A stretch of 64,000 bases of DNA, from assembly GCA_963518165.1 (NCBI GenBank), contig CAUQHX010000003.1, positions 34,480 to 98,479 of the forward strand, read 5' to 3'. Positions 1 to 64,000 of the stretch are shown here, piece after piece. The DNA is from an uncultured Atopobium sp. (GTDB lineage Bacteria; Actinomycetota; Coriobacteriia; Coriobacteriales; Atopobiaceae). The notes beneath the pieces are model-generated. The model was given only the letters and a program-made list of their open reading frames with translations. It was not told the origin of the DNA and did no database searches. The translations under genes were made by a program, and so were the position numbers. Each line of letters opens with the position of its first letter. Within the stretch, counting starts at the first letter, position 1.

Positions 1-836
1 GGTTTGACAGATTGAGGCATAACAAGCTGGTCAACCTTGGTTTTAAGGTTATCCCCCAGCAGGTATGCGGTAACGCCATAGTAGGTGCCTTCGGAGGCGC
101 GAACTCGAGGAGTAAGGGTAACTACGCCCTTAGAGATAGATGGCGCAGTAGCAAATCTGCCTGGAGATTCAACGGCATCCGTTCCTTCTGAATCGCCCAC
201 ACGCCACACGTAGCAGTGAGAAGACTCACGGGTTTTCTCGCCCGACGAAGAAGGCTGGACAAGCCAAACCACCTTATCGTCTCCGCAGGCAAATGGAGCC
301 GGATCCCAGTTTTTATCAGCCTTGTACAGCACCTTTGCGTCACCTGTGAGCTTGCCGTCAGAAAATGGTGCGGCGAGAAGTTCCCAATCAAAGGTTGTGG
401 TATCCACCTCGACCCATGCGTACACAGAGTCAGAGCAGCGGACGTCGTAAATAACGGCGGTAGTATTGTTCATCTGAGCTGTAGGAACAACGTCAACTAC
501 CTGGCCAGACGTCAGCGAGAGAGCAGAGCCCTTTACCATAGGCGTGGCAGACGCGCCGGCCGTGGTAACGGGAATCCAATTTCCGTCAGCTGGATGCAGC
601 ACGCTTCCTAAAGGAAGCGTCCATGTCTGGCTTGGCTGAGCAGAATATTCCGTTGAACTATAGGAGTCCAGCACGTTTGTGCCAGAAGACTCATCAAGTA
701 CCAGCGGCTTTCCTGCGTCACCCGAGCCCTCTTGATGGGAGCAACCTGCTGCGATGCTAATTGCGCCAGCAACTACTACGCCAGCTGCTCCCGTCTTGAA
801 GAAGTTTCGACGAGAAATGTTCCCAAACAAAGCCAC
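1..836 (-). CDS. Tat-signal lipoprotein of unknown function (partial, runs off the window start)
   Basis: Read manually: GTG at 836, just after the purB stop. It gives MALFGNISRRNFFKTGAAGVVVAGAISIAAGC..., a twin-arginine motif followed by a lipobox Cys. It is absent from the ORF track because its stop lies outside the window. Confidence 0.8.
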   Translation of the reverse strand, partial: MALFGNISRRNFFKTGAAGVVVAGAISIAAGCSHQEGSGDAGKPLVLDESSGTNVLDSYSSTEYSAQPSQTWTLPLGSVLHPADGNWIPVTTAGASATPMVKGSALSLTSGQVVDVVPTAQMNNTTAVIYDVRCSDSVYAWVEVDTTTFDWELLAAPFSDGKLTGDAKVLYKADKNWDPAPFACGDDKVVWLVQPSSSGEKTRESSHCYVWRVGDSEGTDAVESPGRFATAPSISKGVVTLTPRVRASEGTYYGVTAYLLGDNLKTKVDQLVMPQSVK

Positions 837-839
837 GAT

Positions 840-2186
840 TTAGTCCAATTCAAGATGCTCAAGACGGTCAAACAGAACGTTTGAGCGGGTAAGGAACGCG
901 CGAGGATCAAAAATCTTCTCAAGCTCCTCGTGGCTCAGCGTACAAGCTGGATCTTCCTCAAGAAGCTCCTGGTAGGATGGTCCTTCCTTGCACTGCTGAA
1001 TATCTGCCCAGACCTTCATAGCATTGGACTGGACAATCTTGTATGCCTCTTCACGAGTAATACCAGTGTTGACCAGGGCAAGAAGAACCTTTGACGAGAA
1101 GAGCATGCCACGGGTCTTATTGAGGTTGGCCATCATTTGCTCTGGATACAGGACCATGCCATCAAGCAAGAACTCAAGCTTTGACAGCATGTGGTCAAGA
1201 GCAATGAAGCTATCTGCCTGGGCAACGCGCTCAGCGGAAGAGTGGCTGATATCACGCTCGTGCCAAAGAGCAACGTTATCAAAAGCAACCTGTGCGTTTG
1301 CCTTAACTACGCGGGACAAACCACAGATCTTCTCGGCAGTAATAGGGTTGCGCTTGTGAGGCATAGCGGAAGAGCCCTTCTGACCCTTGCGGAATGGCTC
1401 CTCAGCCTCGAGGGTATCGGTCTTCTGCAGCGCACGCATCTCAGTTGCAATACGTTCGCAGGTAGCGGCAACGGTTGCCAGAACACCAGCAAGGTACGCG
1501 TGATGGTCGCGAGAAATTACCTGGGTTGAAAGTGGATCGTGGACAAGACCGAGTTTCTCGCAAACGTACTCCTCAACAAAAGGATCAATGGAAGAGTAAG
1601 TTCCAACAGCACCAGAAATTGCACCATAGGCAACGTTTTTGCGGGCATCCTTCAAGCGGTCAAGGTCGCGCTTAAACTCCCAGGCCCAGCTACCAAATTT
1701 CATGCCAAAGGTCATAGGCTCAGCATGAATGCCATGAGTACGACCAACGCACAGAGTATCGCGCTCCTCAAATGCGCGACGCTTGCAGATAGCAGCGCAA
1801 CGACGAACTGCAGCAATGAGCAGGTCACATGCCTGAGTGAGCTGGTAGCAAAGAGCGGTATCACCCAAGTCTGTTGAGGTCATGCCATAGTGAACCCAGC
1901 GACTTGGCTTAAGCTCACCCTCTGGAACCTTGGCATCGATGTAGGAGCCCATATTGGTCAGGAAGGCAATGACGTCGTGGTTGGTAACGGCCTCAATCTC
2001 GTCTACCTCAGCGCGATTAAACGCAGCGTGCTCTCGAATCCAAGCTGCCTCTTCGCGAGAAATGCCAATAACACCAAGCTCAGCCTGTGCTTCGCACGCA
2101 AGGACTTCAATCTCCTGCCAAACGGCGTACTTGTTCTCCAAAGAAAAGATGTGGCCCATTTCTTTGCCGGTGTAGCGATCTACCAC
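840..2186 (-). CDS. purB: adenylosuccinate lyase
   Basis: Signature GSSAMPHKRNP, plus GRTHG and HYGMTSTD motifs. SD GAAGGAG precedes the GTG. Confidence 0.97.
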   Translation of the reverse strand: MVDRYTGKEMGHIFSLENKYAVWQEIEVLACEAQAELGVIGISREEAAWIREHAAFNRAEVDEIEAVTNHDVIAFLTNMGSYIDAKVPEGELKPSRWVHYGMTSTDLGDTALCYQLTQACDLLIAAVRRCAAICKRRAFEERDTLCVGRTHGIHAEPMTFGMKFGSWAWEFKRDLDRLKDARKNVAYGAISGAVGTYSSIDPFVEEYVCEKLGLVHDPLSTQVISRDHHAYLAGVLATVAATCERIATEMRALQKTDTLEAEEPFRKGQKGSSAMPHKRNPITAEKICGLSRVVKANAQVAFDNVALWHERDISHSSAERVAQADSFIALDHMLSKLEFLLDGMVLYPEQMMANLNKTRGMLFSSKVLLALVNTGITREEAYKIVQSNAMKVWADIQQCKEGPSYQELLEEDPACTLSHEELEKIFDPRAFLTRSNVLFDRLEHLELD

Positions 2187-2207
2187 GATGAGACTCCTTC
2201 TGCTCGT

Positions 2208-2246
2208 AAAAGAAAAGGTCGAGTACCACTATGGTACCCGACCTTT
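2208..2246 (-). terminator. intrinsic terminator after tRNA-Lys
   Basis: Stem AAAGGTCGAGTACCA/TGGTACCCGACCTTT, followed on the minus strand by TTTTCTTTT. Confidence 0.7.
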
Positions 2247-2254
2247 GAATTACC

Positions 2255-2330
2255 TGGTGGGCCGTTAGGGGTTCGAACCCTAGACCTTGGGATTAAAAGT
2301 CCCCTGCTCTACCAACTGAGCTAACGGCCC
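2255..2330 (-). tRNA. tRNA-Lys(UUU)
   Basis: Cloverleaf GGGCCGTTAGCTCAGTTGGTAGAGC...CTTTTAA...GGTTCGAACCC...CCA. Confidence 0.97.
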
Positions 2331-2378
2331 ATTATCGGGCGTGGCAATTTTACCACGCAACTAGGATAGTGTAGCAGT

Positions 2379-3814: not shown

Positions 3815-3823
3815 GTATGTCAT

Positions 3824-9184: not shown

Positions 9185-9373
9185 ACTGCGTCCTTCGTTG
9201 GCATGTCTTTTGACAGGTTTCATACATACGTCATTAGTATACGTCTTATATCGAAATGTAGCGGTTAAAGTGTATTTTTACGTCCAAATTTAGAAATTCT
9301 GCACTAAATATCAAAAACTTTCGTATATGTTTAGAGAGATTCGAGTTCAGGTAGTAAAAAGCGGGAGGTGGAT

Positions 9374-10354
9374 ATGGCTCCAAACGATCAATCTCTAGGC
9401 AACAACGAGCTAGGTGCCTGGAGGATTTTCTCGCTATTTATGCTGCTACTTCAAAAGGGACCTTTACCTTCGGCAGAGATTTATACGACGATTTACTCGG
9501 ATTTGTCTACTGATTCAGCTTCAAGAACGTTTTCAAGAAATCGCACTGTTTTAAAACAACTCGGGTTTGTAATTACTGAGGTAAAAACAGGAAAAGAAAA
9601 GTCGTTCTATCTTTCGGACTCAAATTTCTTTGATTCCTCGTATGACTTAAATCCTGGAGATGCCAATCAACTGCTTGTTATCTGCAGCGCAGTTCTCACT
9701 GATACAACTTTTGTGTACCAAGAGGAATTAAGAAACGCGCTTTCTAAAATTGTGGGCAACTTTTATTCCTCCGATTCAGACAAGCCAGAAAGCCAAAAAC
9801 TCAGTACTTCTTCTCAAAGCAAAGTCTTTCCTGTTCTCTATGAGTCCATCAGCTCTAAACAACAGGTAAAGGTCACGTATACAAACTCGCAAGAACAGGT
9901 CAAGCAGAAGCATCTTGGTATTCTGGACTTCTTTGTATCGCAGGGGCTTCTGTACTTTGTAGCTCAAGATTTTTCGTCCAACAGTGAGACTGCTTCGATC
10001 AAAACTTTTCGCGTTGACCGTGTCTTAGATGCTGAAATTCTTAAAGATGAGCACTTCTCCATTCCAGAAGATTTTGATTCAAATGACTATAACCTGCTTG
10101 ATTTCCAGCTCGGATCGCAAGCCGGCACTCTTACTGCGTTTGTCCCCAAAAACATATTCGCTGCTTTTGAGCATTTCTCGCAAGGTCAAGGCGATATTGA
10201 GCTTCTCCCTAATGGAGCTTTATGGACCGTTACCTACGCTCATGAAGACGCTGCTTTATCTTGGATTCTTGCTCATGGATTAATTCCAAGGTCTCCAGAG
10301 TCTCTTCTCGCAAAATGGAAAGAGTCTTTAAGCGAGGTTGCCAATGGCCATTAA
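9374..10354 (+). CDS. HTH-WYL transcriptional regulator (PafB-like)
   Basis: N-terminal RTFSRNRTVLKQLG (PafB RxFxRDxxxLxxLG-like), ALSKI and the WYL-region motif KTFRVDRV. SD GGGAGG. Confidence 0.8.
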   Translation: MAPNDQSLGNNELGAWRIFSLFMLLLQKGPLPSAEIYTTIYSDLSTDSASRTFSRNRTVLKQLGFVITEVKTGKEKSFYLSDSNFFDSSYDLNPGDANQLLVICSAVLTDTTFVYQEELRNALSKIVGNFYSSDSDKPESQKLSTSSQSKVFPVLYESISSKQQVKVTYTNSQEQVKQKHLGILDFFVSQGLLYFVAQDFSSNSETASIKTFRVDRVLDAEILKDEHFSIPEDFDSNDYNLLDFQLGSQAGTLTAFVPKNIFAAFEHFSQGQGDIELLPNGALWTVTYAHEDAALSWILAHGLIPRSPESLLAKWKESLSEVANGH

Positions 10355-11330
10355 AAACACCTCTTTTGGAAGAAAAAACATTTCTTCAGCCGTCTACAAA
10401 CTCGTGTTGCTTGCCACTGCATTTAGAAATTCTTTTGACGCGGTCGAGTTGAGTGCGGTCCAGTCGCGCTTTGGCATCTCCTCAAAAGAAGCTGCCATTC
10501 TGATGGAGCTCTTGCAGCTCACGGACGAGAATGGCTATCTTCCCCTCCCGCTTACTGGAGACCAAGATACTTTGACACTCGTTGGAGAGTCTCCGTTTAG
10601 AACTCGAAGGCTTGTCTTAACAGACGAAGAAACGTTAGCGCTTAAAGAGGCGTTTACAACACTCGACTTGCCCCAAGAAAGTGTATTTTGGAAACTTCTG
10701 AAGCCTCCCTATACAGCAAACTCTTCGTCAAATAATGCCTCAGTTTCACGTGTCTCTAAAAGTCATATTACAGAAGTAGATGCCTTCCTTACCTGCTCAA
10801 ATGCAATTGCGGAGTCACAAGTTATTTCATTTGAGTATCGTTCTGAGATAGCGTTTGAGGAAACTCAAAGCAATAAAGAAGCTATAGTCAGCCAAAGAGA
10901 TGTTCTTCCCTATCAATTGTCCTACGGGGAGAACGGCTGGCTTATCGAGGGAATTGATTTAGACCTCGAGCAGCAAAGGGTCTTTAGAGTCAATCGCATG
11001 AGCCACATTGAGGCCCGCCCCGCTTCATTGGAGCAGCTAAAACTTGCAGAAAAAGTAAAAGGGTCTTCTGCGCCGGAAAAATCGCAGTTAGTAGAGCTTG
11101 TCTTCCTTGATAAAGGTGCTCTTACGCACTATTCGTGGCCTGGCCTCACAACGGTTGGCGGTCAGCGCAATGCTATAGAAATTAGAGCAACTATCCCCTA
11201 TTACGGTGGAACATGGCTGCTACAACGCTTACTTGCCCTCAAAGGAAAAGTAACAACCAAAGACCAGACCGTGGTGCAGGCAATGCGTGCCTACGCTACA
11301 TCTCTACTTGCTGCAGAAGAGCAACTTTAA
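10344..11330 (+). CDS. HTH-WYL transcriptional regulator (PafC-like)
   Basis: LTDEETLAL, RDVLPYQL, RVFRVNRM and WLLQRLL. Its start overlaps the end of the upstream WYL gene. Confidence 0.8.
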   Translation: MAIKNTSFGRKNISSAVYKLVLLATAFRNSFDAVELSAVQSRFGISSKEAAILMELLQLTDENGYLPLPLTGDQDTLTLVGESPFRTRRLVLTDEETLALKEAFTTLDLPQESVFWKLLKPPYTANSSSNNASVSRVSKSHITEVDAFLTCSNAIAESQVISFEYRSEIAFEETQSNKEAIVSQRDVLPYQLSYGENGWLIEGIDLDLEQQRVFRVNRMSHIEARPASLEQLKLAEKVKGSSAPEKSQLVELVFLDKGALTHYSWPGLTTVGGQRNAIEIRATIPYYGGTWLLQRLLALKGKVTTKDQTVVQAMRAYATSLLAAEEQL

Positions 11331-11355
11331 GCCAATTAGGAAGCTGTTAGTACTG

Positions 11356-14300
11356 CTACGCGTCGTGTTCTTCTCGCCACTTGGCAATTTGCTCGGAGAT
11401 GTCCTTTGTCGAGACGCGCTGGCAGTTCTTGTTGGGCAATGACTTCAAGAACGAGCTGCCATATCGCTTGGACACAAGCCTGGAATCGGCAAGCACCAAA
11501 ACGCCCTTATCCTCAGCGCTCCTGATAAGGCGGCCAGCAGCCTGTTTGGTTGCAATTACCGCCTCTGGCAGAGAATAGCGCCACCACGCACGGTCTTCTC
11601 GTGCCTCACGCTCTTTGACCAGCGGCTCGTTAGGACTTGCAAACGGAAGCTTAGGGATTACCACGCACCTCAGCGTATCTCCCGCAGCGTCAAAGCCCTC
11701 CCAGAACGATTTAAGAGCAAACAGCGAGAGGTTCTTCTCGGCTAGGAACTTTTCACGAACGCGTCGCGCGGAAGAAGATCGCTCCTGGCAGGCAAGGTTA
11801 AGGCCATGCTCACTCAAACGAGGCTCAAGCGCTTCAAAGAGACGCTCCATATCGCGTCTGTTAGTGAAGAGCGTCAGCACCGAGCCGCCCATCTGAACAT
11901 GAACGTCGTACAGCAGCTTTTCCAAAGCGTCCAAGTAGCCTGGATCAGTTGGCGCAGGCATATCCTCAGCCACAAAGACGCCCATATGATTCTCGTAATC
12001 AAAGCTTGACTCTAAGTGCAGGCTCTTGTGCTCAAAGGAGCCTCTATCCAGGCCAACAGCGTGCTCAAAATGAGAGAAATCATCTCCAACAGCAATGGTT
12101 GCTGAGGTAAACACAACAGAGTGCGTCTCCGGCAGCCACTTCTCTGCCAGCTCTGCTCCAATATCAAGCTTCTCGGCCATAAGGGCTTCAGAGCCAATGT
12201 CGCGTTTTAGTCGGGTTAACTTGGCTGAATAGACGTAGCTCTTGTCCGTTCCCTCACAGATGAGCTTCAGTGAATCCAGAAGGGTACTCAAGAAGACCCC
12301 AGCATCGCTCAAGTTGCTTGCAAGGTTTGGTGCCGATGCGACAAGCGCATCGGTGGCTTTTCCTATTCGAAGAGCAGCTTCTTCAAGAGCAGATAGAGCA
12401 ACGGAAGCGGTCTCTAAGACTTCTTTCCATTCCTCTGTCTCTCTTACCTCGTCATTGATCCAAAGCTGAAGGGAGTTATAACCACCATCACTTTTAGCCA
12501 ACGGAGCCAGCTCATGCACAGTGGCCATAAGGTTGCCCATTGCTGCCATGGCTCGCTGAACTGCGGCGGCAGAGCGCGTGAGAAGCCCCGTGAGCAGCGT
12601 AGAGTCCTCAAGGTTGGCAGCGCCCACCATAGCGGCGTGGATAGCGCCAGACTTGATGCCTCCGAGCAGCTCAAAGCCGTTTCGCATCTCTTTGGCAGAG
12701 ATTTCTACTGCCCACTGACGGCGAGCTTCAGCTTCAAAACCATGAGCCTCATCGATTACCCAATGCCTGATAGGAGGCAGAATTTTACCGTCAGCAGCAA
12801 CGTTTCTGAGCAACAGAGAGTGGTTGGTCACCACAACATCTGAAGACCCTGCACGTTTACGAGCTCCATGAACAAAGCACTCGTGAGGGTAATATGGGCA
12901 CTTGGAGCGCAGACACTCTGCAGCCTTGATAGTGACCATCTCTCGCGGAACCGAGCGCCAACGAATACCCAGCGCATCCAAGTCGCCGTCGGCTGACTGG
13001 CATGCGTACGCATAAATCACCGCAATTGCGGTCAGCATGTCAGACGCAACGCTATTGCTAGAGCGACCTTCTTGGTCGATGAGCGTCAGCGGAAGCTCTT
13101 CAAGGGCAGCTCTATCAACACGATGCAAGCACGGATAATGCTCGTACCCCTTTAAGCTGCAAAAACTCAACCCGTTAGGAAGCGCCTTCGCAAGCGCTGG
13201 AAGGTCGTGTGCAACAAGCTGGTCAGTCAGTGCGTTTGTCTTTGTAGCAATACCTACGGTAACGTCGTTTTTCTGCGCAAAAAGTACCTCAGGCAGCAGA
13301 TATGCAATTGACTTGCCAATGCCAGTTCCGGCTTCAAGCTCTCTATGCGAAGAAGTGACCAGCGCATTTCTGACCTCAACGGACATGCTAACTTGCTCAC
13401 TGCGCGTCTCAAATTTGTCATACATCTGTGAAACGACGCCCGGCTTAGCAAATGCCCGATGAATCTCGTCCTTAGAAATCGGCAGCATAGCAGGCGTCTC
13501 TGGGTCATCCGCATCCCTTCTCGCCTTTGCTTTTATGTCGGCAACAAGCTGGCTACGAATGTCCTTGAGCGAGAAGAACGTGCCCGAAATCTCCGCGTCT
13601 GCAAGCTCGGCTCCTGTTGCGTCTTCTTTTGCAACACCGTGCTGAACAGCCTCTTCTTCTTTCATCTTTGACAAATACGAGAAGATCGGCCTAAATGTCC
13701 ACTCCACTCCATCGTGCATTGACGCCAGTTTGGCGAGAAGACCACGGGGCAGATTCATAAGTCCCAAAAGCAAGATGCGCCACATCTCACAAAGAGCATC
13801 TACGTCGTCACTTGCGCGATGCGTAACCTTCATGGTGCCAAACGCTTCTGCCATGCTGGAAAGCTTGTGTGAAGAAAGTCGAGGTAGAGCTATGCGTGAA
13901 AGTGACAGCGTATCAATCCAGGTATCGGAGACTGAAGTTCCACCAGATACCCGCTCAATAAACGTGCGGTCAAAGGTAGCGTTATGTGCCAAAACTGGAA
14001 GTCCGCCAACAAACTCTGCAAGGGCCGCAACAGCTTCTTTTGCGCTTGGCGCACCCTTAACGTCTGCGTCGGTAATTGAGGTCAGAGCAGTAATTTCTTC
14101 GGGAATTGAACACCCCGGGTCAACAAACGTCTGAAAGCGCTCCACAATCTCTCTACCGCTCAACTTAGCAGCAGAAATCTCAATAAGAGAGCATTTCTTA
14201 AAGGACAGACCTGTTGTTTCGGTATCCAAAACAACAATGTCATCCTCTAAGACATCAAACGACTCATGCTCCGCCCTCTCTGCAAGCTCCAAATATTTTT

Positions 14301-14373
14301 TACGAACTGCAGAGGGGGTGCCTGGAAGAATGAGTTCTTCTAGCTTTTGCGTAGCGCTTTTAGTGCTGGCCAT
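11356..14373 (-). CDS. dinG: DinG family helicase with N-terminal DEDDh 3'-5' exonuclease
   Basis: LDTETTG, AHNATFD and HRASDD (exonuclease). EAGTGIGKS, DEAH, SAT, FWEGFD and QAAGRLIR (helicase). Four Cys consistent with an Fe-S cluster. Confidence 0.92.
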   Translation of the reverse strand: MASTKSATQKLEELILPGTPSAVRKKYLELAERAEHESFDVLEDDIVVLDTETTGLSFKKCSLIEISAAKLSGREIVERFQTFVDPGCSIPEEITALTSITDADVKGAPSAKEAVAALAEFVGGLPVLAHNATFDRTFIERVSGGTSVSDTWIDTLSLSRIALPRLSSHKLSSMAEAFGTMKVTHRASDDVDALCEMWRILLLGLMNLPRGLLAKLASMHDGVEWTFRPIFSYLSKMKEEEAVQHGVAKEDATGAELADAEISGTFFSLKDIRSQLVADIKAKARRDADDPETPAMLPISKDEIHRAFAKPGVVSQMYDKFETRSEQVSMSVEVRNALVTSSHRELEAGTGIGKSIAYLLPEVLFAQKNDVTVGIATKTNALTDQLVAHDLPALAKALPNGLSFCSLKGYEHYPCLHRVDRAALEELPLTLIDQEGRSSNSVASDMLTAIAVIYAYACQSADGDLDALGIRWRSVPREMVTIKAAECLRSKCPYYPHECFVHGARKRAGSSDVVVTNHSLLLRNVAADGKILPPIRHWVIDEAHGFEAEARRQWAVEISAKEMRNGFELLGGIKSGAIHAAMVGAANLEDSTLLTGLLTRSAAAVQRAMAAMGNLMATVHELAPLAKSDGGYNSLQLWINDEVRETEEWKEVLETASVALSALEEAALRIGKATDALVASAPNLASNLSDAGVFLSTLLDSLKLICEGTDKSYVYSAKLTRLKRDIGSEALMAEKLDIGAELAEKWLPETHSVVFTSATIAVGDDFSHFEHAVGLDRGSFEHKSLHLESSFDYENHMGVFVAEDMPAPTDPGYLDALEKLLYDVHVQMGGSVLTLFTNRRDMERLFEALEPRLSEHGLNLACQERSSSARRVREKFLAEKNLSLFALKSFWEGFDAAGDTLRCVVIPKLPFASPNEPLVKEREAREDRAWWRYSLPEAVIATKQAAGRLIRSAEDKGVLVLADSRLVSKRYGSSFLKSLPNKNCQRVSTKDISEQIAKWREEHDA

Positions 14374-18603: not shown

Positions 18604-18619
18604 TGTTTCACGTGAAACA
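18604..18619. promoter_or_regulatory. parS site
   Basis: Perfect palindrome TGTTTCACGTGAAACA between rsmG and parA. Confidence 0.95.
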
Positions 18620-18627: not shown

Positions 18628-19386
18628 TTAGTCTCTTCTTGCAACAAACGGATTTGATTTAGCCATTCCGGTTTTTCTCGGTAGTTTAATTTTGCTTTTC
18701 CCAACTTTTCTATAAAGAAGAATTTCACGATGACCAAGGTCGTTTGGTAATTCAAATGTTTCACGTGAAACATTTTCATACCCAAAAATTTTGGCTGCCT
18801 GAGAGGCGTCCTGAAGCTCTATCTCATCAACGTTGGCCTTCATTACTATGAGGGTACCATGTGAAGCTAAGAAAGGCTCTGCGTACTCCAAAAGAATATT
18901 TGTCTTTGCAACAGCTCTGAAAGTAACAAAATCAAACTTCTGCTTGTAATCATTTTGAATTTCTTCAGCACGAAGCTTTTCAGCTCTAACTCTCTCACCA
19001 AGACCAATCTCATCGATCATTGACTGTACCGCATTTATCTTTTTTCCAATGGAATCAACCAGCAATGTTTTATTGTTGCACATGATTGCGAGAGGTAGTC
19101 CTGGAAAACCTCCACCGGTACCAATATCAATATAGTTTTGAGCTCCAGATGTGAACTCATTACACACTTTGAGTGGTAATAAAGAATCAAGTATATGAAG
19201 AACCAGTGCATCGTCAATTGAAGTGATTCTTGTAAGGTTGAGGTTTTTATTAATCTCAATTAGCAATTCAATGTGCTTGAGAAGCTGTCTTCTTTGAGTT
19301 TCAGTTGAATCGATTCCATAGGTAAGGAGAAGTTCCTTAAGTACATTCTCTTTTGAATCGTATAAAGACTTCTCAGCTTCAGACAT
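18628..19386 (-). CDS. rsmG: 16S rRNA m7G527 methyltransferase RsmG
   Basis: LNLTRI, HILDSL, DIGTGGGFPG and FRAVA. SD AGGAG precedes ATG 19386. Confidence 0.95.
   Translation of the reverse strand: MSEAEKSLYDSKENVLKELLLTYGIDSTETQRRQLLKHIELLIEINKNLNLTRITSIDDALVLHILDSLLPLKVCNEFTSGAQNYIDIGTGGGFPGLPLAIMCNNKTLLVDSIGKKINAVQSMIDEIGLGERVRAEKLRAEEIQNDYKQKFDFVTFRAVAKTNILLEYAEPFLASHGTLIVMKANVDEIELQDASQAAKIFGYENVSRETFELPNDLGHREILLYRKVGKSKIKLPRKTGMAKSNPFVARRD
18757..18772. promoter_or_regulatory. parS site within rsmG
   Basis: Second perfect TGTTTCACGTGAAACA. Confidence 0.92.
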
Positions 19387-22983: not shown

Positions 22984-24513
22984 ATGGATGCATCAATTGA
23001 TTCAGACGCAGTAGCTCTGTGGCAAGACGCAATTGACCTTTTGGTTGAAGAGAATCAGCCAGAGGCTTTTATCGCCATGTTGAGAACCTGCACTCCAATC
23101 AAAGTTGAAGATAATGCTTTATGTGCTGAGACTTCAATGCGCTTGGCTTATAACCGTATCCTTAAAAACCTGCCAATTGTTGAGAGATGTCTCTCGGCTG
23201 CAGCTTTTGAAGACATTATCTTAAGTCTTACGCTTACAAAGTCTTCTACTCCTGTTACCACTACTTCTACGATGACTCCTCAGGAGTTCAACGCTTGGAA
23301 GCAGAAAACTGCTCCTATACAGGCTGTTGTTCCAGAACAGATTCAAGATTTTGAATCCCAGGAACAGAGCCTTGAGGAACTAAAGCAGCAGACGTTAAAG
23401 AGACGTAAGAGCAACCCTCTTTATGAGGAGACATCTTTCAATTCAAACCTTACATTTGATCGCTTTGTTGTTGGTGACGAGAATGAGCTTGCTCATCAGC
23501 ATGCTTTAAATGTTGCAAACGATGCAAAAGGCAAGGCAAATCCACTCTTTATTTATGGTGCAAGCGGTCTTGGAAAAACTCACCTTCTGCGCGCCGTTCA
23601 AAACTACATCAACGCTGAAGACATCGAGCGCGTTTGTGTTTATAAGGACGCAGATGCCTTTGTTGATGACTACGTAAATGCAGTTCGTAAAAATGCCTCA
23701 GGAAACGCTGCAACAGAGCTGAGTAATAACTATCAAAACATTGATGTTCTTATCATCGACGATGTTCAAAAACTTGCTGGTAAAGCGGGTACCATTAACT
23801 TCTTCTTCAATATTTTTAACTCTCTTATTGATAGAGGTAAGCAGATTATTCTTGCCGCCGATAGAACCCCAGCTCAGCTTGGTATGGGCTCTGACGGTTT
23901 TGACGATCGTATTACTTCTCGTATGAGTGGTGGCATTGTTATTGGCATTGAATCTCCAAGTTACGAGATGAAGCTCAATCTTATTCACGTCTTCTGCGAC
24001 CGAGCTTTTAAAGAGAGAAATTCTTCTCTTTCTGCAGATGATATGCCAGAAGATATTCGTCGCTATATGGCTGATAAGGCCGGCCAAAGTATTAGAACCC
24101 TTGAAGGCTTCTGTAATCGTTGCGTCACCGGACAAATTAAAGCAAAAGAATCCGGCAAAAACATTAAGCAAGAAGAGATCGATAAGATTGCAGACACTCT
24201 CTGGCGTCGCATTTCAAAGACCGTAAATATCGAGAAGGTCCAAGAAGTCGTAGAGAACGTCTATGGCATTAGCCATCGCGATATTGTTGGTAACAAGAGA
24301 AATAAAGAAATTGCAGAGCCACGTCATGTTGCAATTTATCTTGCTCACGATCTTTGCCAATACACGCTGGTAAATATTGGTAAGCATTTTGGTGGAAGAA
24401 AACACGCAACCATTTTGCACAGTATTGAGGTAATTGAAGAGAGAATCAAAGAAGATAAAAGCTTCTATGATCAAATTTCTCAACTTAAAAAAACTATCCT
24501 TGAACAAAGTTAG
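22984..24513 (+). CDS. dnaA: chromosomal replication initiator DnaA
   Basis: TFDRFVVG, NPLFIYGASGLGKTHLL, LIIDDVQ and domain IV PRHVAIYL...IGKHFGGRKHATI. Confidence 0.97.
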   Translation: MDASIDSDAVALWQDAIDLLVEENQPEAFIAMLRTCTPIKVEDNALCAETSMRLAYNRILKNLPIVERCLSAAAFEDIILSLTLTKSSTPVTTTSTMTPQEFNAWKQKTAPIQAVVPEQIQDFESQEQSLEELKQQTLKRRKSNPLYEETSFNSNLTFDRFVVGDENELAHQHALNVANDAKGKANPLFIYGASGLGKTHLLRAVQNYINAEDIERVCVYKDADAFVDDYVNAVRKNASGNAATELSNNYQNIDVLIIDDVQKLAGKAGTINFFFNIFNSLIDRGKQIILAADRTPAQLGMGSDGFDDRITSRMSGGIVIGIESPSYEMKLNLIHVFCDRAFKERNSSLSADDMPEDIRRYMADKAGQSIRTLEGFCNRCVTGQIKAKESGKNIKQEEIDKIADTLWRRISKTVNIEKVQEVVENVYGISHRDIVGNKRNKEIAEPRHVAIYLAHDLCQYTLVNIGKHFGGRKHATILHSIEVIEERIKEDKSFYDQISQLKKTILEQS

Positions 24514-37714: not shown

Positions 37715-37737
37715 GTGTTTTAGTTAAAGCAGTAACG

Positions 37738-37774
37738 TATGGCGAGAAGATCCGTTGGTCTTCTCGCCATTTTT
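37738..37774. terminator. terminator built from an inverted GGCGAGAA pair
   Basis: ATGGCGAGAAGA-TCCGTTGG-TCTTCTCGCCAT-TTTT between convergent genes. Confidence 0.8.
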
Positions 37775-37775
37775 G

Positions 37776-38774
37776 TTAGATGGTGGATTTGAGCCAATTA
37801 AGCTTGCACGTAAGCAGCTTGTGGTCGGGCTCAAGCGAGGGATCTTTGATTCTTTTAAGGAGCATCTTACAAGCTGCGTAGCCCTCTTCATAGACGGGTT
37901 CCACAATAGTTGAGATGCTTTTAGCAGGTAAATCGGTCCAATCAGTGTTGTTGAATCCCAACAGTCCAACTTGCTCTGGAATTACCTTTTCATAGGCATG
38001 CAAGGCATTGTAGACACTCTTGAGCGCCCACTGATTTGGTACAAACACTAGCGTTTTCTTTGACGGAAGAATGTGGTTGTTAAGCCATTGCGTAATTTCA
38101 GGGATAGACAACGTACTTTGCTCTATGGTGAGACGCTCATAAGGTTTACTTGAGGCCTCTAGGGCATCGGTGAAGCCAGATTCTCGTTCAATCCTGGTGC
38201 GACCTTTTGGCTCTCCACCAATGATTAAAAAGTTCTCATATCCACGTTCAATGCAGCGCGACGCTGCTGAATAGACTCCGTCATAGAGGTCACTTTTTAT
38301 CCAGGAAGTATTAAGGGTAAGAAGGTCGCAGTCAAAATAGACAACCGGTTTTCCAACTTTAGCAATGCGCCTATCCACCGCCTTAAATTGATTGGTGGGC
38401 TGGATGAGCATGCCATCCGCTCCAATTGAGAGCATCTTCTCGACCCAGTCAGCTTCAAGCGTGGGGTCAAAGCGAGAATTACAAATAATTGTCTGATATC
38501 CGGCTTCAAGAGCAGCATCTTCAATACCGTTAGTCATTTGAGCGGCCCAGGCATTAGTGTTGTCCAATATGAGAACAGCAATAATTCCAGAGCTCTTTTT
38601 AACCATGGCTTGAGCCTGGGCACTTGGAATATATCCCGTATTTTCAATTGCTTTTTTGATACGTTGCTTAGTTGCTTCGGACATCTTTTCAAAGTGTCCA
38701 TTAAGGTAATTTGAAACGGTGGCAATGGAAACATTTGCTAATTTTGCAAGGTCAATGATAGTGGTCTTAGACAT
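37776..38774 (-). CDS. LacI family transcriptional regulator
   Basis: HTH TIIDLAKLANVSIATVSNYLNG, followed by a sugar-binding domain. Confidence 0.95.
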   Translation of the reverse strand: MSKTTIIDLAKLANVSIATVSNYLNGHFEKMSEATKQRIKKAIENTGYIPSAQAQAMVKKSSGIIAVLILDNTNAWAAQMTNGIEDAALEAGYQTIICNSRFDPTLEADWVEKMLSIGADGMLIQPTNQFKAVDRRIAKVGKPVVYFDCDLLTLNTSWIKSDLYDGVYSAASRCIERGYENFLIIGGEPKGRTRIERESGFTDALEASSKPYERLTIEQSTLSIPEITQWLNNHILPSKKTLVFVPNQWALKSVYNALHAYEKVIPEQVGLLGFNNTDWTDLPAKSISTIVEPVYEEGYAACKMLLKRIKDPSLEPDHKLLTCKLNWLKSTI

Positions 38775-44468: not shown

Positions 44469-44492
44469 CAGCGTCGTTTACAGACAGTCAAT

Positions 44493-44541
44493 CTGGCGAG
44501 AAAAACTTGCAGCTGCAAGGGTTTCTCGCCAGTTTTGTTTT
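44493..44541 (+). terminator. typA terminator built from an inverted GGCGAGAA pair
   Basis: CTGGCGAGAAA..CTTGCAGCTGCAAG..TTTCTCGCCAG-TTTTGTTT. Confidence 0.75.
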
Positions 44542-44653
44542 AGGTGGATTTTAAATAAAGTGCAGGTAAACGGCGTGCGCGGGCGATGCAAAACCGGCCA
44601 AGCCGCCAAAACCGCCAAAAATGTTCAATGACCGTCCGATTGCGGCGGTTCGT

Positions 44654-48711: not shown

Positions 48712-49770
48712 ATGGATAGACCGGATTCAAATATTCCTCAGGCACCTGAAGGGTATTCTCGCCCAGAGAGTAGCTCGCAGAATGTTGCCGGTCCAAGCAA
48801 CCAAAACGGAGGCAAACCGCGTCCGTTTGAAGCTCCAACCTACAAGCAAGGCTTTGTGCTTTGCGTAGTTGGTGGAGTTATTACCGGGCTCCTTTCTTTT
48901 ATTGGAGCTGCTTTGGTTGCGTATGGCATGGTAATTGCCGTCTATTGCAAAAAAGGGCACGGATGGTTTGGTCTCGCTATTACTTCTGTATTTGTTACAG
49001 GTATAGCAGCGTATTTGCTCTCGGGACCAACGGAGGCGGCAACTTCAGTTACCGCTTGCGCACTTGCTCTTGGAGTTGGCTACGCTTTTGCAACCGAGAA
49101 ACTCACCGTTGGTGTTGGATCTCTTCTTGTAGGAGCAACGGCTTTGGCACTTCTAGGATACGACGCGTTCTTTGCCGCGATGGCAGGAACAAGTCTTCCC
49201 GAGCTTGCTCAGAGCGTGTTTAATCAATACGCTTCGCAGGTCTCAAGCGCTTCTCCAGAGATCCAAGAGGGTCTTTCAACTGCAAAGGCACTCTTTATGC
49301 TCTTTTGGCCAACCAGCTATACCGGTATGGCGCTTTTATATTTTGTAATTGCGCGTTTTGGAGCTCGAACAGTGTATAAAGCACTGACAAGAGACCCACA
49401 GAAATTGCCACAGTTCCAGCTCATGGACGTTCCATTCTGGATGTGTGCTCTTACCGTGGCCAACTTGTTTGTGTACGCACTTTCAAGCACCGTTTTGTCT
49501 GCACAAGACATACTTCAGCTGATTACGCTGAATGTATTTATGGCTCTTAGAGTTGTTTTTGCTCTTCAGGGCCTTGCAGTGCTCACATGGTTTGTGCGCG
49601 AGAAGCACTTCTCGCCAGCACTTTCTCTGTCACTGTTTGTATTGGCAGGCATGCTAGAAGTTCAGTTAGGCGTTATGGCTCTCGTAGGACTTATTGACGC
49701 CTGGGCAAACTTCCGAAAGCTTAATCGCTCAGGAAGCCAGGATTCAGAGCCTACGATAAACAACAACTAG
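48712..49770 (+). CDS. DUF2232/YybS-like membrane protein
   Basis: Multiple TM segments, QGLAV and GLIDAWANFRKL, between rpsR and rplI. Confidence 0.8.
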   Translation: MDRPDSNIPQAPEGYSRPESSSQNVAGPSNQNGGKPRPFEAPTYKQGFVLCVVGGVITGLLSFIGAALVAYGMVIAVYCKKGHGWFGLAITSVFVTGIAAYLLSGPTEAATSVTACALALGVGYAFATEKLTVGVGSLLVGATALALLGYDAFFAAMAGTSLPELAQSVFNQYASQVSSASPEIQEGLSTAKALFMLFWPTSYTGMALLYFVIARFGARTVYKALTRDPQKLPQFQLMDVPFWMCALTVANLFVYALSSTVLSAQDILQLITLNVFMALRVVFALQGLAVLTWFVREKHFSPALSLSLFVLAGMLEVQLGVMALVGLIDAWANFRKLNRSGSQDSEPTINNN

Positions 49771-53692: not shown

Positions 53693-55807
53693 GTGGCGTC
53701 TTCGGACTGCTCGACTTTTGCAATAGTTTGCGATAACCCCTGTGGGCTTGAAGCTTCCCAGCTTGAAGCCCTGGGGGTTTCTGTAATACCTGGAGCTTTG
53801 AGCTCAGATGCTGACAAGGTAGGCGAGTTCTATCGGGGTATTTTTGAGTCTGGAGCACAAAAGATTCTCTCGCTCCATGTGTGGGCAGATTTCTCTGATT
53901 CGCTTCTTACGGCACAAAAGGCTTGTCAGAATAATCCTGATATCTCAAGCTCAATTTGCCTGGTAGATAGTGGAAATATGCCTACCGCAATGGGAATCAT
54001 GCTTGAGCGCTTAAGCGTGGCAAGAGCATCTGGAGCTTCGTTTGAGGCAGCCTGCGCATACGCACACGAACTTGCCGAGGTAGTTGCCACAATGTATATC
54101 GCAATGAATAAGGTCGCGCTGCATAAAAGCAAGGACAAGCGCCCCAGGCTTTCGTTGCGACTTCGACTTGAGCGCTTGCATAGGCGCATTTCAAACGACA
54201 TGTATTTGTATCGTTTGGTTGGCGGAAAATGTACAGAGGTTGCTCGCTCGTCAGATTTTACCGATCTAGCAGCAAGAATTTCTCGCCTTATGAGCGCGTG
54301 TTTTGTAAAGCGTGGCGAGCTCAAATATGTAGTGATTTCAAGTGGCGAGAAACGCATAGAAAAGCATCTCAAAAAGCCGCTTAAAACTAATGAATATGAT
54401 GCAGAATGTATTGCAGAAAGACTTGCTTCTCCCGAGTTTAAAAAGAGACTGGGAGAAGGTTCTGTTGGCGTTGCTTGTATCCCAAAGGCGTTGTATCAGA
54501 AGGCTGGAGTACTTATGAATGACACCGTTGATATTTTGTTGCTTGGTGCGGGCGGTCGCGAGCATGCGCTCCTGACAAAGCTGCAAGAGTCACCTCGCGC
54601 TGGGAAAATTTACGTTGCTCCAGGTAACGGTGGCATGGCTGCTCAGGCAGAGGTTGCTCCCATTGATCAAAACAATCCTGATGAGGTTGTCGCGTTTGCC
54701 AAAGCAAAAGGCATTGGCCTGGTAGTCATTGGCCCTGAGGCACCTCTTGTTGTGGGTGTTGCAGACGCTGTTCGTCAGGCTGGTATTGCATGCTTTGGTC
54801 CTAACCAGAACGCAGCCCAGATGGAGGGCTCAAAGGCGTTTGCCAAGGGCGTTATGGAGCGAGCAAACGTTCCAACTGCTGCATGGAAGTCTTTCACCGA
54901 TCAAGCGTCTTGTGAGGCGTATGTTAACCAGATTGGCGCTCCTGTAGTTGTTAAAGCAGACGGTCTTGCCGCAGGTAAGGGCGTTATCGTTGCAACTGAG
55001 CTTGAGCAGGCTCTTGAGGGCGTTCGCGAGTGTTTCTCCGGCCATTTTGGTGATGCGGGAACAACCGTTGTTGTCGAGGAGTTCCTTGAGGGACCAGAGT
55101 GCTCGCTGCTTGCGTTGACTGATGGAACGTACGTTGTTCCGCTGGCAACAGCTCAGGATCACAAGCGCGCTTACGACGACGATAAGGGTCCCAACACTGG
55201 TGGCATGGGCGTCTATTCACCTGTTCCTTTTGTGACCGACGAAGAGCTTTCTCAGATGATTGCTATTGAGCAGCGCGTGGTTGACCAGCTCAAAAAAGAG
55301 GGCATTAACTATTCTGGCTGCCTTTACGGCGGATTTATGCTGACCAAAAATGGTCCTAAGGTTCTTGAGTTCAACGCTCGCTTTGGCGATCCAGAAACTC
55401 AGGTAGTACTACCTCGCCTTGAGGGAGACTTGGTTTCAATTTTGATGGCTTGTGATAACGGCACTCTTCGTCATCAGCAGGTTTCCTGGTCGGATACAGT
55501 TGCTGTTTCTGTTGTTCTCGCAAGCGCTGGATATCCTGGCTCTTACGAGAAGGGCAAGGAGATTACCGGTATCGAGGCTGCTCAGCAGCTTGAAGGCGTC
55601 TCTGTCTATCACGCCGGAACTGCTCAGACCGAGGACGGAAAGATTGTGACTGCAGGCGGTCGCGTACTCAACGTCACCGCGCTTGCCCCAACCTTTGAAG
55701 AAGCTCGCGCTCGCGCATACGAGGCCTGTGATCTGATTAATTTTGAGGGCAAGCAACTCAGGCACGATATTGGACTCAAGGCTCTTCAAAGCCGTCCAGA
55801 AAAATAA
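53693..55807 (+). CDS. purD: DegV-like domain fused to phosphoribosylamine--glycine ligase
   Basis: PurD starts at M275 (LLGAGGREHAL, KADGLAAGKGV, GPNTGGMG, RFGDPE). The N-terminal 274 aa resemble DegV. Confidence 0.9.
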   Translation: MASSDCSTFAIVCDNPCGLEASQLEALGVSVIPGALSSDADKVGEFYRGIFESGAQKILSLHVWADFSDSLLTAQKACQNNPDISSSICLVDSGNMPTAMGIMLERLSVARASGASFEAACAYAHELAEVVATMYIAMNKVALHKSKDKRPRLSLRLRLERLHRRISNDMYLYRLVGGKCTEVARSSDFTDLAARISRLMSACFVKRGELKYVVISSGEKRIEKHLKKPLKTNEYDAECIAERLASPEFKKRLGEGSVGVACIPKALYQKAGVLMNDTVDILLLGAGGREHALLTKLQESPRAGKIYVAPGNGGMAAQAEVAPIDQNNPDEVVAFAKAKGIGLVVIGPEAPLVVGVADAVRQAGIACFGPNQNAAQMEGSKAFAKGVMERANVPTAAWKSFTDQASCEAYVNQIGAPVVVKADGLAAGKGVIVATELEQALEGVRECFSGHFGDAGTTVVVEEFLEGPECSLLALTDGTYVVPLATAQDHKRAYDDDKGPNTGGMGVYSPVPFVTDEELSQMIAIEQRVVDQLKKEGINYSGCLYGGFMLTKNGPKVLEFNARFGDPETQVVLPRLEGDLVSILMACDNGTLRHQQVSWSDTVAVSVVLASAGYPGSYEKGKEITGIEAAQQLEGVSVYHAGTAQTEDGKIVTAGGRVLNVTALAPTFEEARARAYEACDLINFEGKQLRHDIGLKALQSRPEK

Positions 55808-61033: not shown

Positions 61034-61149
61034 TACAGTTTCCTTTCACGTGGACTGATGGACCAACGTTCAAGAAAATCATACTCTATACTGTGAGATG
61101 GATATTTGACGTATCCGCCTATTTTATGAGACGTAACAAAGGAGCAGAG

Positions 61150-61611: not shown

Positions 61612-61676
61612 GCTGACGCGTACTGCACGCACGCAGCCTAGTCCACACGCGTATCCGCACGCACGCAATCGCACAC

Positions 61677-61714
61677 GAGACCCGCGCTTTAGGAGACCTG
61701 AGGCGCGGGTTTTG
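61677..61714 (+). terminator. purE terminator
   Basis: GAGACCCGCGCTTTAGG-AGA-CCTGAGGCGCGGGTTTT. Confidence 0.7.
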
Positions 61715-61839
61715 CATACCGCAAAATGTGATTATGCGATGACTTCATAAGATACACAGAGATTTTTGTTTCGTGCATAGCTAAACTTTTAAGGGGTATG
61801 ACAAAGGTATGACAAAGAGTACCTTCAGAAGGGAAGTGC

Positions 61840-62778
61840 ATGGAATCAAAAAACGGCAAGCATTTTGCTTCATTCGCCGCTGACGACCAGACGGCTGGAA
61901 ATACTCACACCTCAAAAACTTCCGTCGAGATGGGTTCTATGAAAAATTCCGCGTCCTCAAAAAAAGAGGGCGACAAAAAAACCTCTCCTAAAAAGTCTGG
62001 CGAGAAACCCGCCAAGAAGAAGGGTTTTGCCTATATTCTTTCCACGCTCTTGCTGGTAGTTGGCATTGGCCTCTTGGTTGTTGCTGGCGTCATGTTTGGC
62101 AAAACCCAGCTTGAATACCACGAGCAAGACGTCATCAATGAAGAGCTTGCAACGTATGCAACAGTTTCCGAGAAAAAAGACGAGGCCCCAGTTATTGATT
62201 GGGCTGGTCTTCAGGCAGTAAACAACCAGGTTGTCGGCTGGATTCAGATTCCAGATACGCAGGTCAACTACCCTGTGTATCAGACTACAGACAACGATCA
62301 CTACCTGCACACAAACGCAAAAGGTGAGTGGTCAATCGGTGGTCAGATTTTCATGGACTACCAAAACAATCCAAATGGCCTCACTGACCAGCAGACTATT
62401 CTTTATGGTCACCACATGAGAAACGGCTCCATGTTCCAGTACATTGGAGCCATGAACGACCAGTCAACCTTCGATAAGGTTGAGACAATCTGGTACGTCA
62501 CACCTACTCAGACATATGAACTTGAGCCGGTATTTACCTATCACACCGATGAAGACGACGAGGAAGTCAGGCAGTTTAACTTTGCTTCTGTTGATGAGTT
62601 CAGGTCTTACTTAAAAGATAGGCTCTCAAGGGCAGTAAGCTCTCGTTCAGATGCAGCAGAGGTTATTTCTCGCGCGGATCATGTTCTTACGCTCTTTACC
62701 TGCAATTACACCGACCAGTACGGCAGGACCATGCTCATCTGTGTCCCAAAGACTGAGGCTCAGCCAAAGGCTCAGTAG
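61840..62778 (+). CDS. srtB: class B sortase
   Basis: TM anchor, GWIQIPDTQVNYPV, DNDHYL, YGHHM, TLFTC and GR. Confidence 0.9.
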   Translation: MESKNGKHFASFAADDQTAGNTHTSKTSVEMGSMKNSASSKKEGDKKTSPKKSGEKPAKKKGFAYILSTLLLVVGIGLLVVAGVMFGKTQLEYHEQDVINEELATYATVSEKKDEAPVIDWAGLQAVNNQVVGWIQIPDTQVNYPVYQTTDNDHYLHTNAKGEWSIGGQIFMDYQNNPNGLTDQQTILYGHHMRNGSMFQYIGAMNDQSTFDKVETIWYVTPTQTYELEPVFTYHTDEDDEEVRQFNFASVDEFRSYLKDRLSRAVSSRSDAAEVISRADHVLTLFTCNYTDQYGRTMLICVPKTEAQPKAQ

Positions 62779-62902
62779 CTGGTACATGGGCGGCAGGAGC
62801 TCTAGCATGGTTAAGCTGGAACTCTAAGATGGGCAGCAGAAACTCTTGCAAGAGCGGTCCGTTAAGCTCAACAAACTGCTACTTTCTTAAAAAATTGTTA
62901 CA

Positions 62903-62934
62903 CGCTCCGAACATATTTGTTCGGAGCGCTTTTT
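62903..62934 (+). terminator. terminator after srtB
   Basis: CGCTCCGAACA-TATT-TGTTCGGAGCG-CTTTTT. Confidence 0.7.
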
Positions 62935-63029
62935 CTTGCAAATTTCCAGGTACACTGTATGTACTGTTGCCAAACGTGAGAGACGTTTGATCAAGGGTGA
63001 CTCAAGCCGAGGAGCCCGGAGGGGATCTA

Positions 63030-64000
63030 ATGGAACTTCACGAGGAATGTGGCGTCTTTGGAGTATGGGCGCCTGACCGTGACGTTGCTCGACTCACTTA
63101 TTTTGCGCTGCACGCGCTGCAGCATCGCGGGCAAGATTCCGCAGGTATAGCCGTCGGCGACGGCCAGACCGTGCTTATCAGAAAAGACACGGGCCTCGTA
63201 ACTGAAGTTTTTAACAACGACGGTCTCAACGCAATGCCAGGTAAAGTGGCTATCGGTCACTGCCGCTACGGCACCGCGGGCGCCAAGGGCTGGGAGTCGG
63301 CCCAGCCACACATGTCGTCCATCGACGAGACCCTCATTGCCCTGGCTCACAACGGCACCCTCGTTAACTTTGACTCCTTGCGAGAAGAACTGTCTTCTCG
63401 CCAGATTTCCTTTAGATCCAACACGGATTCCGAGGTAGCAGCCCAGCTCATTGGCTACTTCACGCGTCAAACGCACCGACTGCGCACCGGCATCGCCGCA
63501 ACCATGAAGCTCATTGAGGGCGGCTACGCCATGGTGCTCATCCGCGAGAACGCGCTGTATGCGTTTAGGGATCCAAACGGCATTCGTCCGCTGGTACTTG
63601 GCCATATTGGCGAGGAGGGCGAGAATAACTGGGTGGTTGCATCTGAGACGTGTGCGCTGGATATCGTGGGCGCCACGTATGTGCGTGAGGTTGCTCCCGG
63701 CGAGATTATCCGCATCTCGGATAATGGCCTGTCTTCTGAGATGGGACTTGCTCCTCGTCAGCAGGCAGATTGCATCTTTGAGCAGGTGTATTTTTCGCGC
63801 CCTGACTCTATTATTAGTGGCCGCTCGGTATATTCCGTCCGTCACCAGATGGGTCGTCAGCTGGCAAAAGAGACGCCAGCAGACGTTGACCTAGTAATTG
63901 GCGTGCCAGATTCCGGTGTTCCTGCAGCTGAGGGCTTTGCGCAAGAGCTGGACGTACCTTTTGGTACCGGCCTCATCAAGAATCGCTACGTTGCAAGAAC
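63030..64000 (+). CDS. purF: amidophosphoribosyltransferase (partial)
   Basis: Manual translation MELHEECGVFG...LQHRGQDSAG...GHCRYGT...AHNG...CIFEQVYFSRPDS...VPDSG. SD GGAGGGG. Runs off the window end. Confidence 0.96.
   Translation, partial: MELHEECGVFGVWAPDRDVARLTYFALHALQHRGQDSAGIAVGDGQTVLIRKDTGLVTEVFNNDGLNAMPGKVAIGHCRYGTAGAKGWESAQPHMSSIDETLIALAHNGTLVNFDSLREELSSRQISFRSNTDSEVAAQLIGYFTRQTHRLRTGIAATMKLIEGGYAMVLIRENALYAFRDPNGIRPLVLGHIGEEGENNWVVASETCALDIVGATYVREVAPGEIIRISDNGLSSEMGLAPRQQADCIFEQVYFSRPDSIISGRSVYSVRHQMGRQLAKETPADVDLVIGVPDSGVPAAEGFAQELDVPFGTGLIKNRYVAR

Follow-up and report, generated by a model that had tools for sequence, protein, structure and literature searches.

Copies of a dispersed DNA motif, CGAGAA-R-NN-C preceded by (T)GG, avoid other copies on the same strand within ~0.9 kb, and opposite-strand copies do not avoid each other. 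The motif recurs throughout a 64,000-nucleotide stretch of an uncultured Atopobium sp. (assembly GCA_963518165.1, contig CAUQHX010000003.1, positions 34,480 to 98,479; the window) and throughout the genome that contains it (G000; relatives are cited by similar handles). An initial annotation of the window had noticed an over-represented octamer, GGCGAGAA, and read it as uptake-signal-like; the same-strand exclusion, which is new here, was overlooked. Our analysis shows a DNA-level, strand-aware, saturable preference for the motif, a putative uptake-sequence-like self tag of the Atopobiaceae and some other Coriobacteriales that resembles, on genomic tests, the DNA uptake sequences (DUS) of Neisseriaceae and the uptake signal sequences (USS) of Pasteurellaceae. 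G000 comprises 1.49 Mb in 7 contigs, for which our own gene calls gave 1,221 genes (85% coding). Its TadA clusters at 90% with a protein that bears the label Lancefieldella parvula (Atopobiaceae, Coriobacteriales), and we therefore place it in the genus Lancefieldella.

A strict core with graded flanks

The motif profile reads T (position -3), G, G, CGAGAA, R, N, N, C (position +9). CGAGAARNNC occurs 1,772 times in the 1.49 Mb, one copy per 843 bp. Among hexamers CGAGAA ranks first, as does GGCGAGAA among octamers (763 copies versus 90 under a third-order Markov model), and the motif supplies the top word at each length from 6 to 10. When GG precedes the core, a single substitution within it cuts the count from 622 to between 2 and 38, T being tolerated at +6. 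The 5' flank acts by degrees: position +9 has C over non-C at a ratio of 13 after TGG, 7 to 8 after TGN or GGG, and ~1 after unfavourable flanks. Outside the R-NN-C context, CGAGAA is not enriched, with 855 coding copies (2,253 less 1,398) against ~880 in synonymous shuffles. At the DNA level the unit is maintained in all frames; its 10-base core is strict and its 5' flanks are graded.

Enrichment beyond coding constraints

One alternative is an artefact of codon or amino acid usage, xxC-GAG-AAG-NNC being a natural spelling of Glu-Lys. The Glu-Lys frame is indeed the commonest (667 of 1,398 coding copies), and this spelling gives a background of 1 to 2 times expectation in GC-rich genomes, which leaves intermediate genomes uncertain. 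When synonymous codons of G000 were shuffled with the protein held fixed, however, 232 ± 14 coding copies were expected and 1,398 were found, a six-fold excess; for the 13-mer the figures were 12.5 and 262. The initial annotation had named loss of enrichment in such codon-preserving shuffles as grounds for rejection, and the enrichment survived. All six frames were raised over shuffles (for example, 227 versus 10 and 109 versus 7), antisense frames by up to 22-fold, which bears out the frame-independent dispersal it had claimed. Density is higher in non-coding DNA (1.7 per kb) than in coding DNA (1.1 per kb), reaches 2.75 per kb between convergent genes, and for the best 13-mer is 3.7-fold greater outside genes. 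Control words, moreover, cluster on the same strand rather than avoid it. The artefact is refuted by synonymous shuffles for G000, G048, G032, and G207, and overall we give it next to no credence.

The motif leaves its mark on the proteome, where GEK is the second most enriched tripeptide (208 versus 112); tripeptide enrichment is likewise known for DUS and USS (PMC2817400). Across ~30 kb aligned to two same-genus genomes, a small sample in which codon position was not controlled, 20 of 24 sites were kept, and differences fell at 5 of 168 fixed motif positions and 7 of 48 free N positions, against a background of 7.7%.

Same-strand exclusion

Pairs of sites on the same strand of G000 fall to 0.56 to 0.88 of expectation at separations of 100 to 1,000 bp, while opposite-strand pairs are not depleted. 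At 60 to 800 bp there are 566 same-strand and 809 opposite-strand pairs (label permutation, z = -6.4); control words do the opposite and cluster on one strand. The exclusion follows the DNA strand and not gene direction, since across oppositely oriented genes there are 16 same-strand and 31 opposite-strand pairs. It is present on both leading (0.74) and lagging (0.69) strands, fades by ~0.9 kb, and scales with site strength (strong-strong pairs 0.61, weak-weak pairs 0.83); between strong sites it is slightly greater on the lagging strand (0.49 versus 0.66). The shadow that strong sites cast on weak ones is symmetric, 0.65 and 0.66 on the two sides, and a model of one-sided scanning was rejected on that basis.

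The effect was replicated in G048 (z = -2.3) and G032 (z = -1.8, or -2.4 without close pairs). A test of five further genomes at 120 to 180 bp counted 623 same-strand against 388 one-class opposite pairs (null expectation 2:1, p = 0.0007), with four of the five in the same direction; the exclusion therefore replicates in most, not all, of the relatives tested. In a toy model, a benefit saturated by same-strand neighbours alone reproduced the pattern, whereas an orientation-blind model failed. The same-strand exclusion shows that reading of the motif is directional or confined to one strand. A scale of 1 to 1.7 kb has been reported for DUS spacing and conversion tracts, about the scale at which the motif saturates (PMC2397512).

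Two known signals were analysed in the same way: DUS in 856 kb of DUS-bearing metagenome loci (L045-L178) and the first 100 forward Chi sites of the 1,008 in Escherichia coli. Single DUS at 60 to 800 bp gave 0.84 for same-strand and 1.10 for opposite-strand pairs, close to 0.78 and 1.09 in G000 (Fisher p = 0.5). The pair counts were 96 same and 125 opposite (p = 0.06), or 110 and 145 for the 8-mer core (p = 0.03); at 200 to 800 bp single DUS were nearly symmetric (0.90 and 0.96, p = 0.17). Our first reading of DUS spacing as orientation-blind was abandoned once single sites were tested, and same-strand avoidance may be a property of single Neisseria DUS too. On single-stranded DNA, DUS have been reported to act in a strand-dependent way (PMC12061091, citing a primary paper). 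E. coli Chi showed no exclusion at scaled distance (46 versus 44), and at the absolute distance of 60 to 800 bp there were few pairs (11 versus 14). Taken together, the comparators imply that the strand rule does not speak against an uptake sequence and speaks mildly against Chi.

Distribution along the chromosome

Motif density is even in 50-kb bins along the chromosome, including the terminus and the skew switch on contig C1. With replichores assigned from GC skew, and small contigs assigned as wholes, the leading-strand fraction is 0.516 for the core, 0.498 for the 13-mer, and 0.491 for the octamer; the genome-wide polarity that the initial annotation had listed as counting against an uptake-like motif is not seen. 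At the resolution of 50-kb bins there is no regional pattern at origin or terminus, nor any confinement or exclusion of the Noc, SlmA, MatP, or ParB type. Same-strand spacing has a mean of 1.68 kb and a coefficient of variation (CV) of 0.90 to 0.94, long gaps are barely trimmed (4% exceed 5 kb, with 5% expected), and no helical (10- to 11-bp) periodicity was found in the spacing of G000 sites. Close inverted pairs occur at twice expectation (54 versus 26 within 50 bp), and 35 of the 63 close inverted pairs lie outside called genes or across gene ends.

The motif is scarce in acquired DNA. Four islands that carry restriction-modification, DndB-like, or mobile-looking genes contain 5 sites where 31 are expected, a partly circular comparison because the islands were chosen partly as the largest gaps; the 5-kb windows of lowest GC content hold 3.3 sites against a mean of 5.9. 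We found no CRISPR array that could point to phages, and a viral scan for the motif gave two short contigs with one pair each.

Two loci deserve a separate record. Locus L253 (G000 contig C4, 23675-26300) is a motif-free island encoding a 762-aa DndB-domain protein and a Dam-like methyltransferase frame. At C1 334010-336721, a C5 methyltransferase adjoins a MutH/Sau3AI-like nuclease; few tetramers are avoided as strongly as GATC (z = -31).

The motif in the window

The window holds 31 GGCGAGAA octamers, 15 forward and 16 reverse, where shuffles give 1.94 ± 1.31 and the highest of 100 shuffles gives 5. All 30 octamer positions in the initial annotation are correct, as is its expectation of about 2 from base composition; the 31st copy, absent from its list, lies on the reverse strand at 13518..13525 inside a DinG-family gene. 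The octamer is over-represented as claimed, but the true unit is longer, as 25 of the 31 continue with R-NN-C. Ten-base cores number 42 forward and 40 reverse on the two strands between 231 and 63625, including those 25; forward cores start at 374, 1095, 2056, 4124, 6144, and so on to 63381, and reverse cores at 231, 1326, 1551, 4284, 6063, and so on to 59103.

Two inverted pairs fold as terminator-like hairpins; the initial annotation had named inverted pairs in terminators as a hallmark of DUS and USS. The pair at 37741..37768 makes up the stem of a hairpin that resembles a bidirectional terminator and separates the convergent genes for an ABC ATPase and a LacI-type regulator (-25.1 kcal/mol for 37730-37780, with a T-run after the stem), and the pair at 44495..44530 forms a terminator-like hairpin after typA (-28.3 kcal/mol for 44485-44545). 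By motif count and gene calls, an overlapping inverted pair at 49599..49616 lies within coding sequence, and a back-to-back pair at 54276..54355 lies within purD, coding and not a terminator. The window covers the origin region, with parAB, yidC, dnaA, dnaN, recF, and gyrBA. The polarity test was centred on dnaA (22984..24513, forward strand), ~2.5 kb upstream of which lies the cumulative GC-skew minimum of contig C3; octamer orientation is balanced on either side, with 5 and 5 to the left and 10 and 11 to the right, in agreement with the earlier claim.

Other features of the window include two exact palindromes, TTTCACGTGAAA, which we take to be parS-like, at 18606-18617 and 18759-18770, a short way upstream of parA; one lies within rsmG. 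At 9368-14373, two tandem WYL-domain genes (PafBC-like) are convergent with the gene for a 1,005-aa DnaQ-DinG-family helicase. An Rfam search of the window returned tRNAs only.

Range among relatives

Comparison with related Coriobacteriia, a check put forward in the initial annotation, found the motif common to many Atopobiaceae and a few other Coriobacteriales. In 47 same-genus genomes the 13-mer occurs 240 to 435 times per genome, against 1 to 12 for a reversed control. Because Glu-Lys codons need a control, the C/G ratio at +9 was used for wider comparison: it was at least 6 in 28 of 80 genomes, intermediate in 29, and at most 2.3 in 23, although these genomes were hand-picked to span the range and the ratios are not an estimate of frequency. 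Motif density is a continuous trait across genomes. Codon shuffles of 31- to 400-kb samples confirmed an excess in G032 (4.0-fold), G048 (2.9-fold), G207 (2.4-fold), and G146 (2.1-fold), and found none in G060, G100, G123, G108, or G052. The core is fixed and the flanks form dialects, TGG- in G000, TGC- in G048, and GGG- in G032 and G207.

An order-wide draw of 171 genomes included 129 from other families, among which only G032 (7.1), G243 (8.7), and G238 (4.1) were both dense and high in ratio; two families, f3 (42 genomes) and f13 (41), were at or below ~2 by hand-computed ratios. On a FastTree tree of 52 taxa built from AddB, TadG, TadA, and ComEC (taxa with fewer than two of the genes omitted; several deep nodes weak), motif-rich lineages branch at the base and in scattered places, a pattern suggesting that the motif was present in the family ancestor and that ~4 losses followed. 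No replacement word was found in 31- to 100-kb samples of the motif-poor G060, G100, G123, G054, G030, G052, and G061. Another over-represented word, GCACCCACACG, was met in G108 (L020-L024), with 28 copies of the 9-mer per 100 kb against 1 expected; it may be a repeat element.

Candidate readers

G000 carries an intact and full Tad/ComEA-ComEC/DprA-ComM-YraN set, the competence genes that the initial annotation had proposed to look for; the same full set is essential for transformation in Bifidobacterium (PMC13660472). AddA-AddB is also intact, the second subunit being closest to Bacillus subtilis AddB (profile E = 3.5e-10, fold E = 7e-27). Presence or absence of comEC, tadA, TadG-like, TadE, Flp, comEA, dprA, and addA does not separate motif-rich from motif-poor genomes. 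Since the transformation genes and AddAB occur in motif-poor relatives too, gene presence does not pick out the reader; partial data on genes missing from motif-poor genomes likewise gave no candidate. Motif searches of called proteins and six-frame translations found no conserved DNA methyltransferase, and regex motif searches found no MutS, MutL, or NucS in the G000 proteome, hence no obvious mismatch repair.

The leading candidate is a 665-aa TadG-like protein of the Tad cluster (L252 4763-6757 on G000 contig C2, reverse strand), found in 138 of 139 Coriobacteriales genomes searched. Between motif-rich genomes it is more conserved than a neutral reference (+0.3 to +0.5, p = 0.01 to 0.14, a weak effect), and its His/Cys segment, flagged beforehand, is better kept on the motif-rich side in five of five sister contrasts, where AddB segments are mixed (again weak). 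AddB conservation between motif-rich genomes is below the neutral reference (-0.4, p ~0.01). Much of the tree structure is left out of account in these conservation tests, which span 11 to 17 segments and serve as leads only. One TadA position, E311 (0.97 versus 0.20), is a variable site after Walker B and was treated as noise.

The TadG-like protein has no solved relative, and the cysteines of its His/Cys motif are lost in genus g24. Its structural model (predicted local distance difference test score, 82) gave no Foldseek match beyond generic helical bundles. Protein and family searches failed to find AddB in 3 of 80 genomes, which are all three of the motif-poor genus g22 (G050, G052, and G053); an AddA-sized frame remains in them.

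Interpretation of the strand rule

We infer biased uptake or retention of one strand in transformation. Uptake or retention would be more frequent for a fragment, or for the single strand of it that enters, if it carried one rightly oriented site; a second same-strand site on the same ~1-kb piece would add little, an opposite-strand site would serve the other strand, and new sites would hence be driven into same-strand gaps. One strand only crosses ComEC in transformation (PMC12455585). The motif would then decide which strand of an incoming fragment is kept, and the same-strand spacing would be its genomic footprint. The reader would be, at a guess, a competence component, with the TadG-like minor pilin and its His/Cys metal-binding-like domain as leading candidate. 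To this putative strand-by-strand, uptake-sequence-like drive through transformation we assign about an even chance. The fuller proposal, that the motif is a third independent DNA uptake sequence family, the first in a Gram-positive bacterium, read strand-selectively by a Tad-pilus minor pilin or at the ComEC step, is possible, and we lean slightly against it.

Several observations weigh against uptake-sequence-like drive. The main tension is with H. influenzae, whose DNA uptake reportedly does not depend on how the USS is oriented (PMC1939737); spacing would then be expected to ignore orientation. The DUS comparator has too little power (p = 0.03 to 0.06 for its own bias) and becomes symmetric, 0.84 and 0.84, when paired sites are included. 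Exclusion is not seen in G207 or G146 by the pair test, and G243 runs against its direction in the test at 120 to 180 bp. The Tad locus is itself motif-poor (4 sites, 10 expected). Irrespective of the motif, comEC and tadA are present in 80 of 80 genomes, TadG-like genes in 80 of 80 and 58 of 59, and dprA in 79 of 80; the uptake-signal-like reading of the initial annotation keeps the DUS/USS genomic hallmarks that could be tested, but competence genes are equally intact in motif-poor relatives. A scan of alignment columns gave no clear motif-specific residue. The His/Cys domain of the TadG-like protein is acidic (net charge ~-7) in motif-rich and motif-poor groups and matches no DNA-binding family or fold. 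Lastly, the AddB hints, namely its loss in g22 and the case of G243, favour a Chi-like signal.

Such an unpolarised signal would be read by the AddAB helicase-nuclease on the unwound single strand; each DNA end would need sites in one orientation, and selection or drive would space the two orientations separately. We consider it unlikely, though Chi logic is strand-specific by nature, AddA-AddB is intact with a true AddB by profile and fold, g22 lacks a detectable AddB in three of three genomes, and AddB of the motif-rich G243 is more G000-like (162 bits, one full-length match) than that of three family-mates, its TadG being unremarkable. The initial annotation had excluded Chi for want of polarity; polarity is indeed missing, but the exclusion was too quick, given a true AddB and unpolarised Chi candidates reported in Vibrio (PMC8022716). 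From the same source, five known Chi words are 5 to 8 nt long, shorter than the 10- to 13-bp profile of the motif. The balanced leading-strand fractions and a shadow equal on both sides, unlike that of a one-sided scanning enzyme, also count against Chi. Between motif-rich genomes, conservation of AddB falls short of expectation, the region aligned to the Chi pocket of B. subtilis AddB varies among them, many motif-poor genomes keep a full-length AddB, and E. coli Chi lacks scaled exclusion. A single-strand or directional chromosomal machine needing a site per strand every 1 to 2 kb (for priming, fork restart, repair strand choice, or a directional nucleoid protein), kept by selection and not by uptake, would suit the 1.68-kb same-strand spacing with its CV of 0.90 to 0.94, the exclusion that tracks the DNA strand (16 versus 31) and is slightly stronger on the lagging strand for strong sites (0.49 versus 0.66), and, if its gene is variably present, the patchy range. 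We think it rather improbable: lagging-strand priming would give a replichore bias that is not seen, long gaps are barely trimmed, there is no origin or terminus pattern or helical periodicity, MutS, MutL, and NucS were not found by regex search, and whole genera live without the motif. The HIP1-like alternative, named in the initial annotation and here taken to mean that a methyltransferase marks one strand of an asymmetric site and methyl-directed heteroduplex repair spreads the motif, fares worse, and we judge it very unlikely. Marking a single strand of a non-palindromic site would be expected to produce the symmetric, strand-specific saturation seen, and highly iterated palindromes (HIPs) are tied to orphan methyltransferases (PMC4390886). 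The motif is not palindromic, however; apart from RsmD- and PrmC-like enzymes, the motif searches returned only three methyltransferases, which lie in motif-poor islands, with identities taken from motifs and context; there is no C-to-T decay shadow; and the eight-fold graded flank effect and the flank dialects are unlike a methyltransferase site.

If uptake-sequence-like drive is correct, self-DNA recognition would extend to Gram-positive bacteria and Tad pili, which would aid the genetics of oral and gut Coriobacteriia; if it is not, the motif is still a conserved, direction-sensitive chromosomal signal. In the literature searched, uptake sequences are established in only two Gram-negative families, and whether they spread by drive or selection is still argued. 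Sister lineages of the Atopobiaceae differ in motif content but share the gene set, strains of Lancefieldella parvula are available in culture, and the strand rule makes a sharp prediction.

Comparison with known systems

We found no description of the motif in the literature searched, which left out most subscription journals and supplements such as the octamer list of PMC8022716; the excerpt of the A. parvulum genome paper (PMC3035223) has no match for "motif" or "competence".

Among short chromosomal DNA signals, FtsK-orienting polar sequences (KOPS) are strongly polar from origin to terminus, and Noc, SlmA, MatP, and ParB sites are regionally restricted; the motif shows neither polarity nor restriction. 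Like the Chi sites of RecBCD and AddAB, which dampen the nuclease and favour the loading of RecA, it is asymmetric, over-represented, and read with direction, and AddAB is encoded; unlike them, it has no leading-strand bias, a longer graded profile, terminator pairs, symmetric shadowing, and an AddB that appears not to be co-conserved with it. With HIP1 (GCGATCGC, cyanobacteria) it shares hyper-abundance, frame independence, and lineage-wide occurrence, but it is no palindrome, motif searches revealed no conserved methyltransferase cognate to it, and its exclusion is local (<1 kb), whereas HIP1 periodicity spans tens of kb (PMC5861425).

The closest systems are DUS (Neisseriaceae; 10 to 12 nt, read by the minor pilin ComP) and USS (Pasteurellaceae; a 9-nt core with flanks, for which ComN/PpdA is the predicted receptor [PMC12616744]). 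As in these, there is about one copy per kb on both strands and in all frames, with tripeptide enrichment, terminator pairs, scarcity in acquired DNA, dialects around a fixed core, and competence genes present. The motif differs in its unrelated sequence and its oral, Gram-positive host with a Tad (type IVc) pilus. Close inverted pairs account for 63 among 1,772 sites, whereas about half of the comparator DUS lie in close pairs, and same-strand exclusion is clear for the motif, although single DUS gave a pattern not distinguishable from it at 60 to 800 bp.

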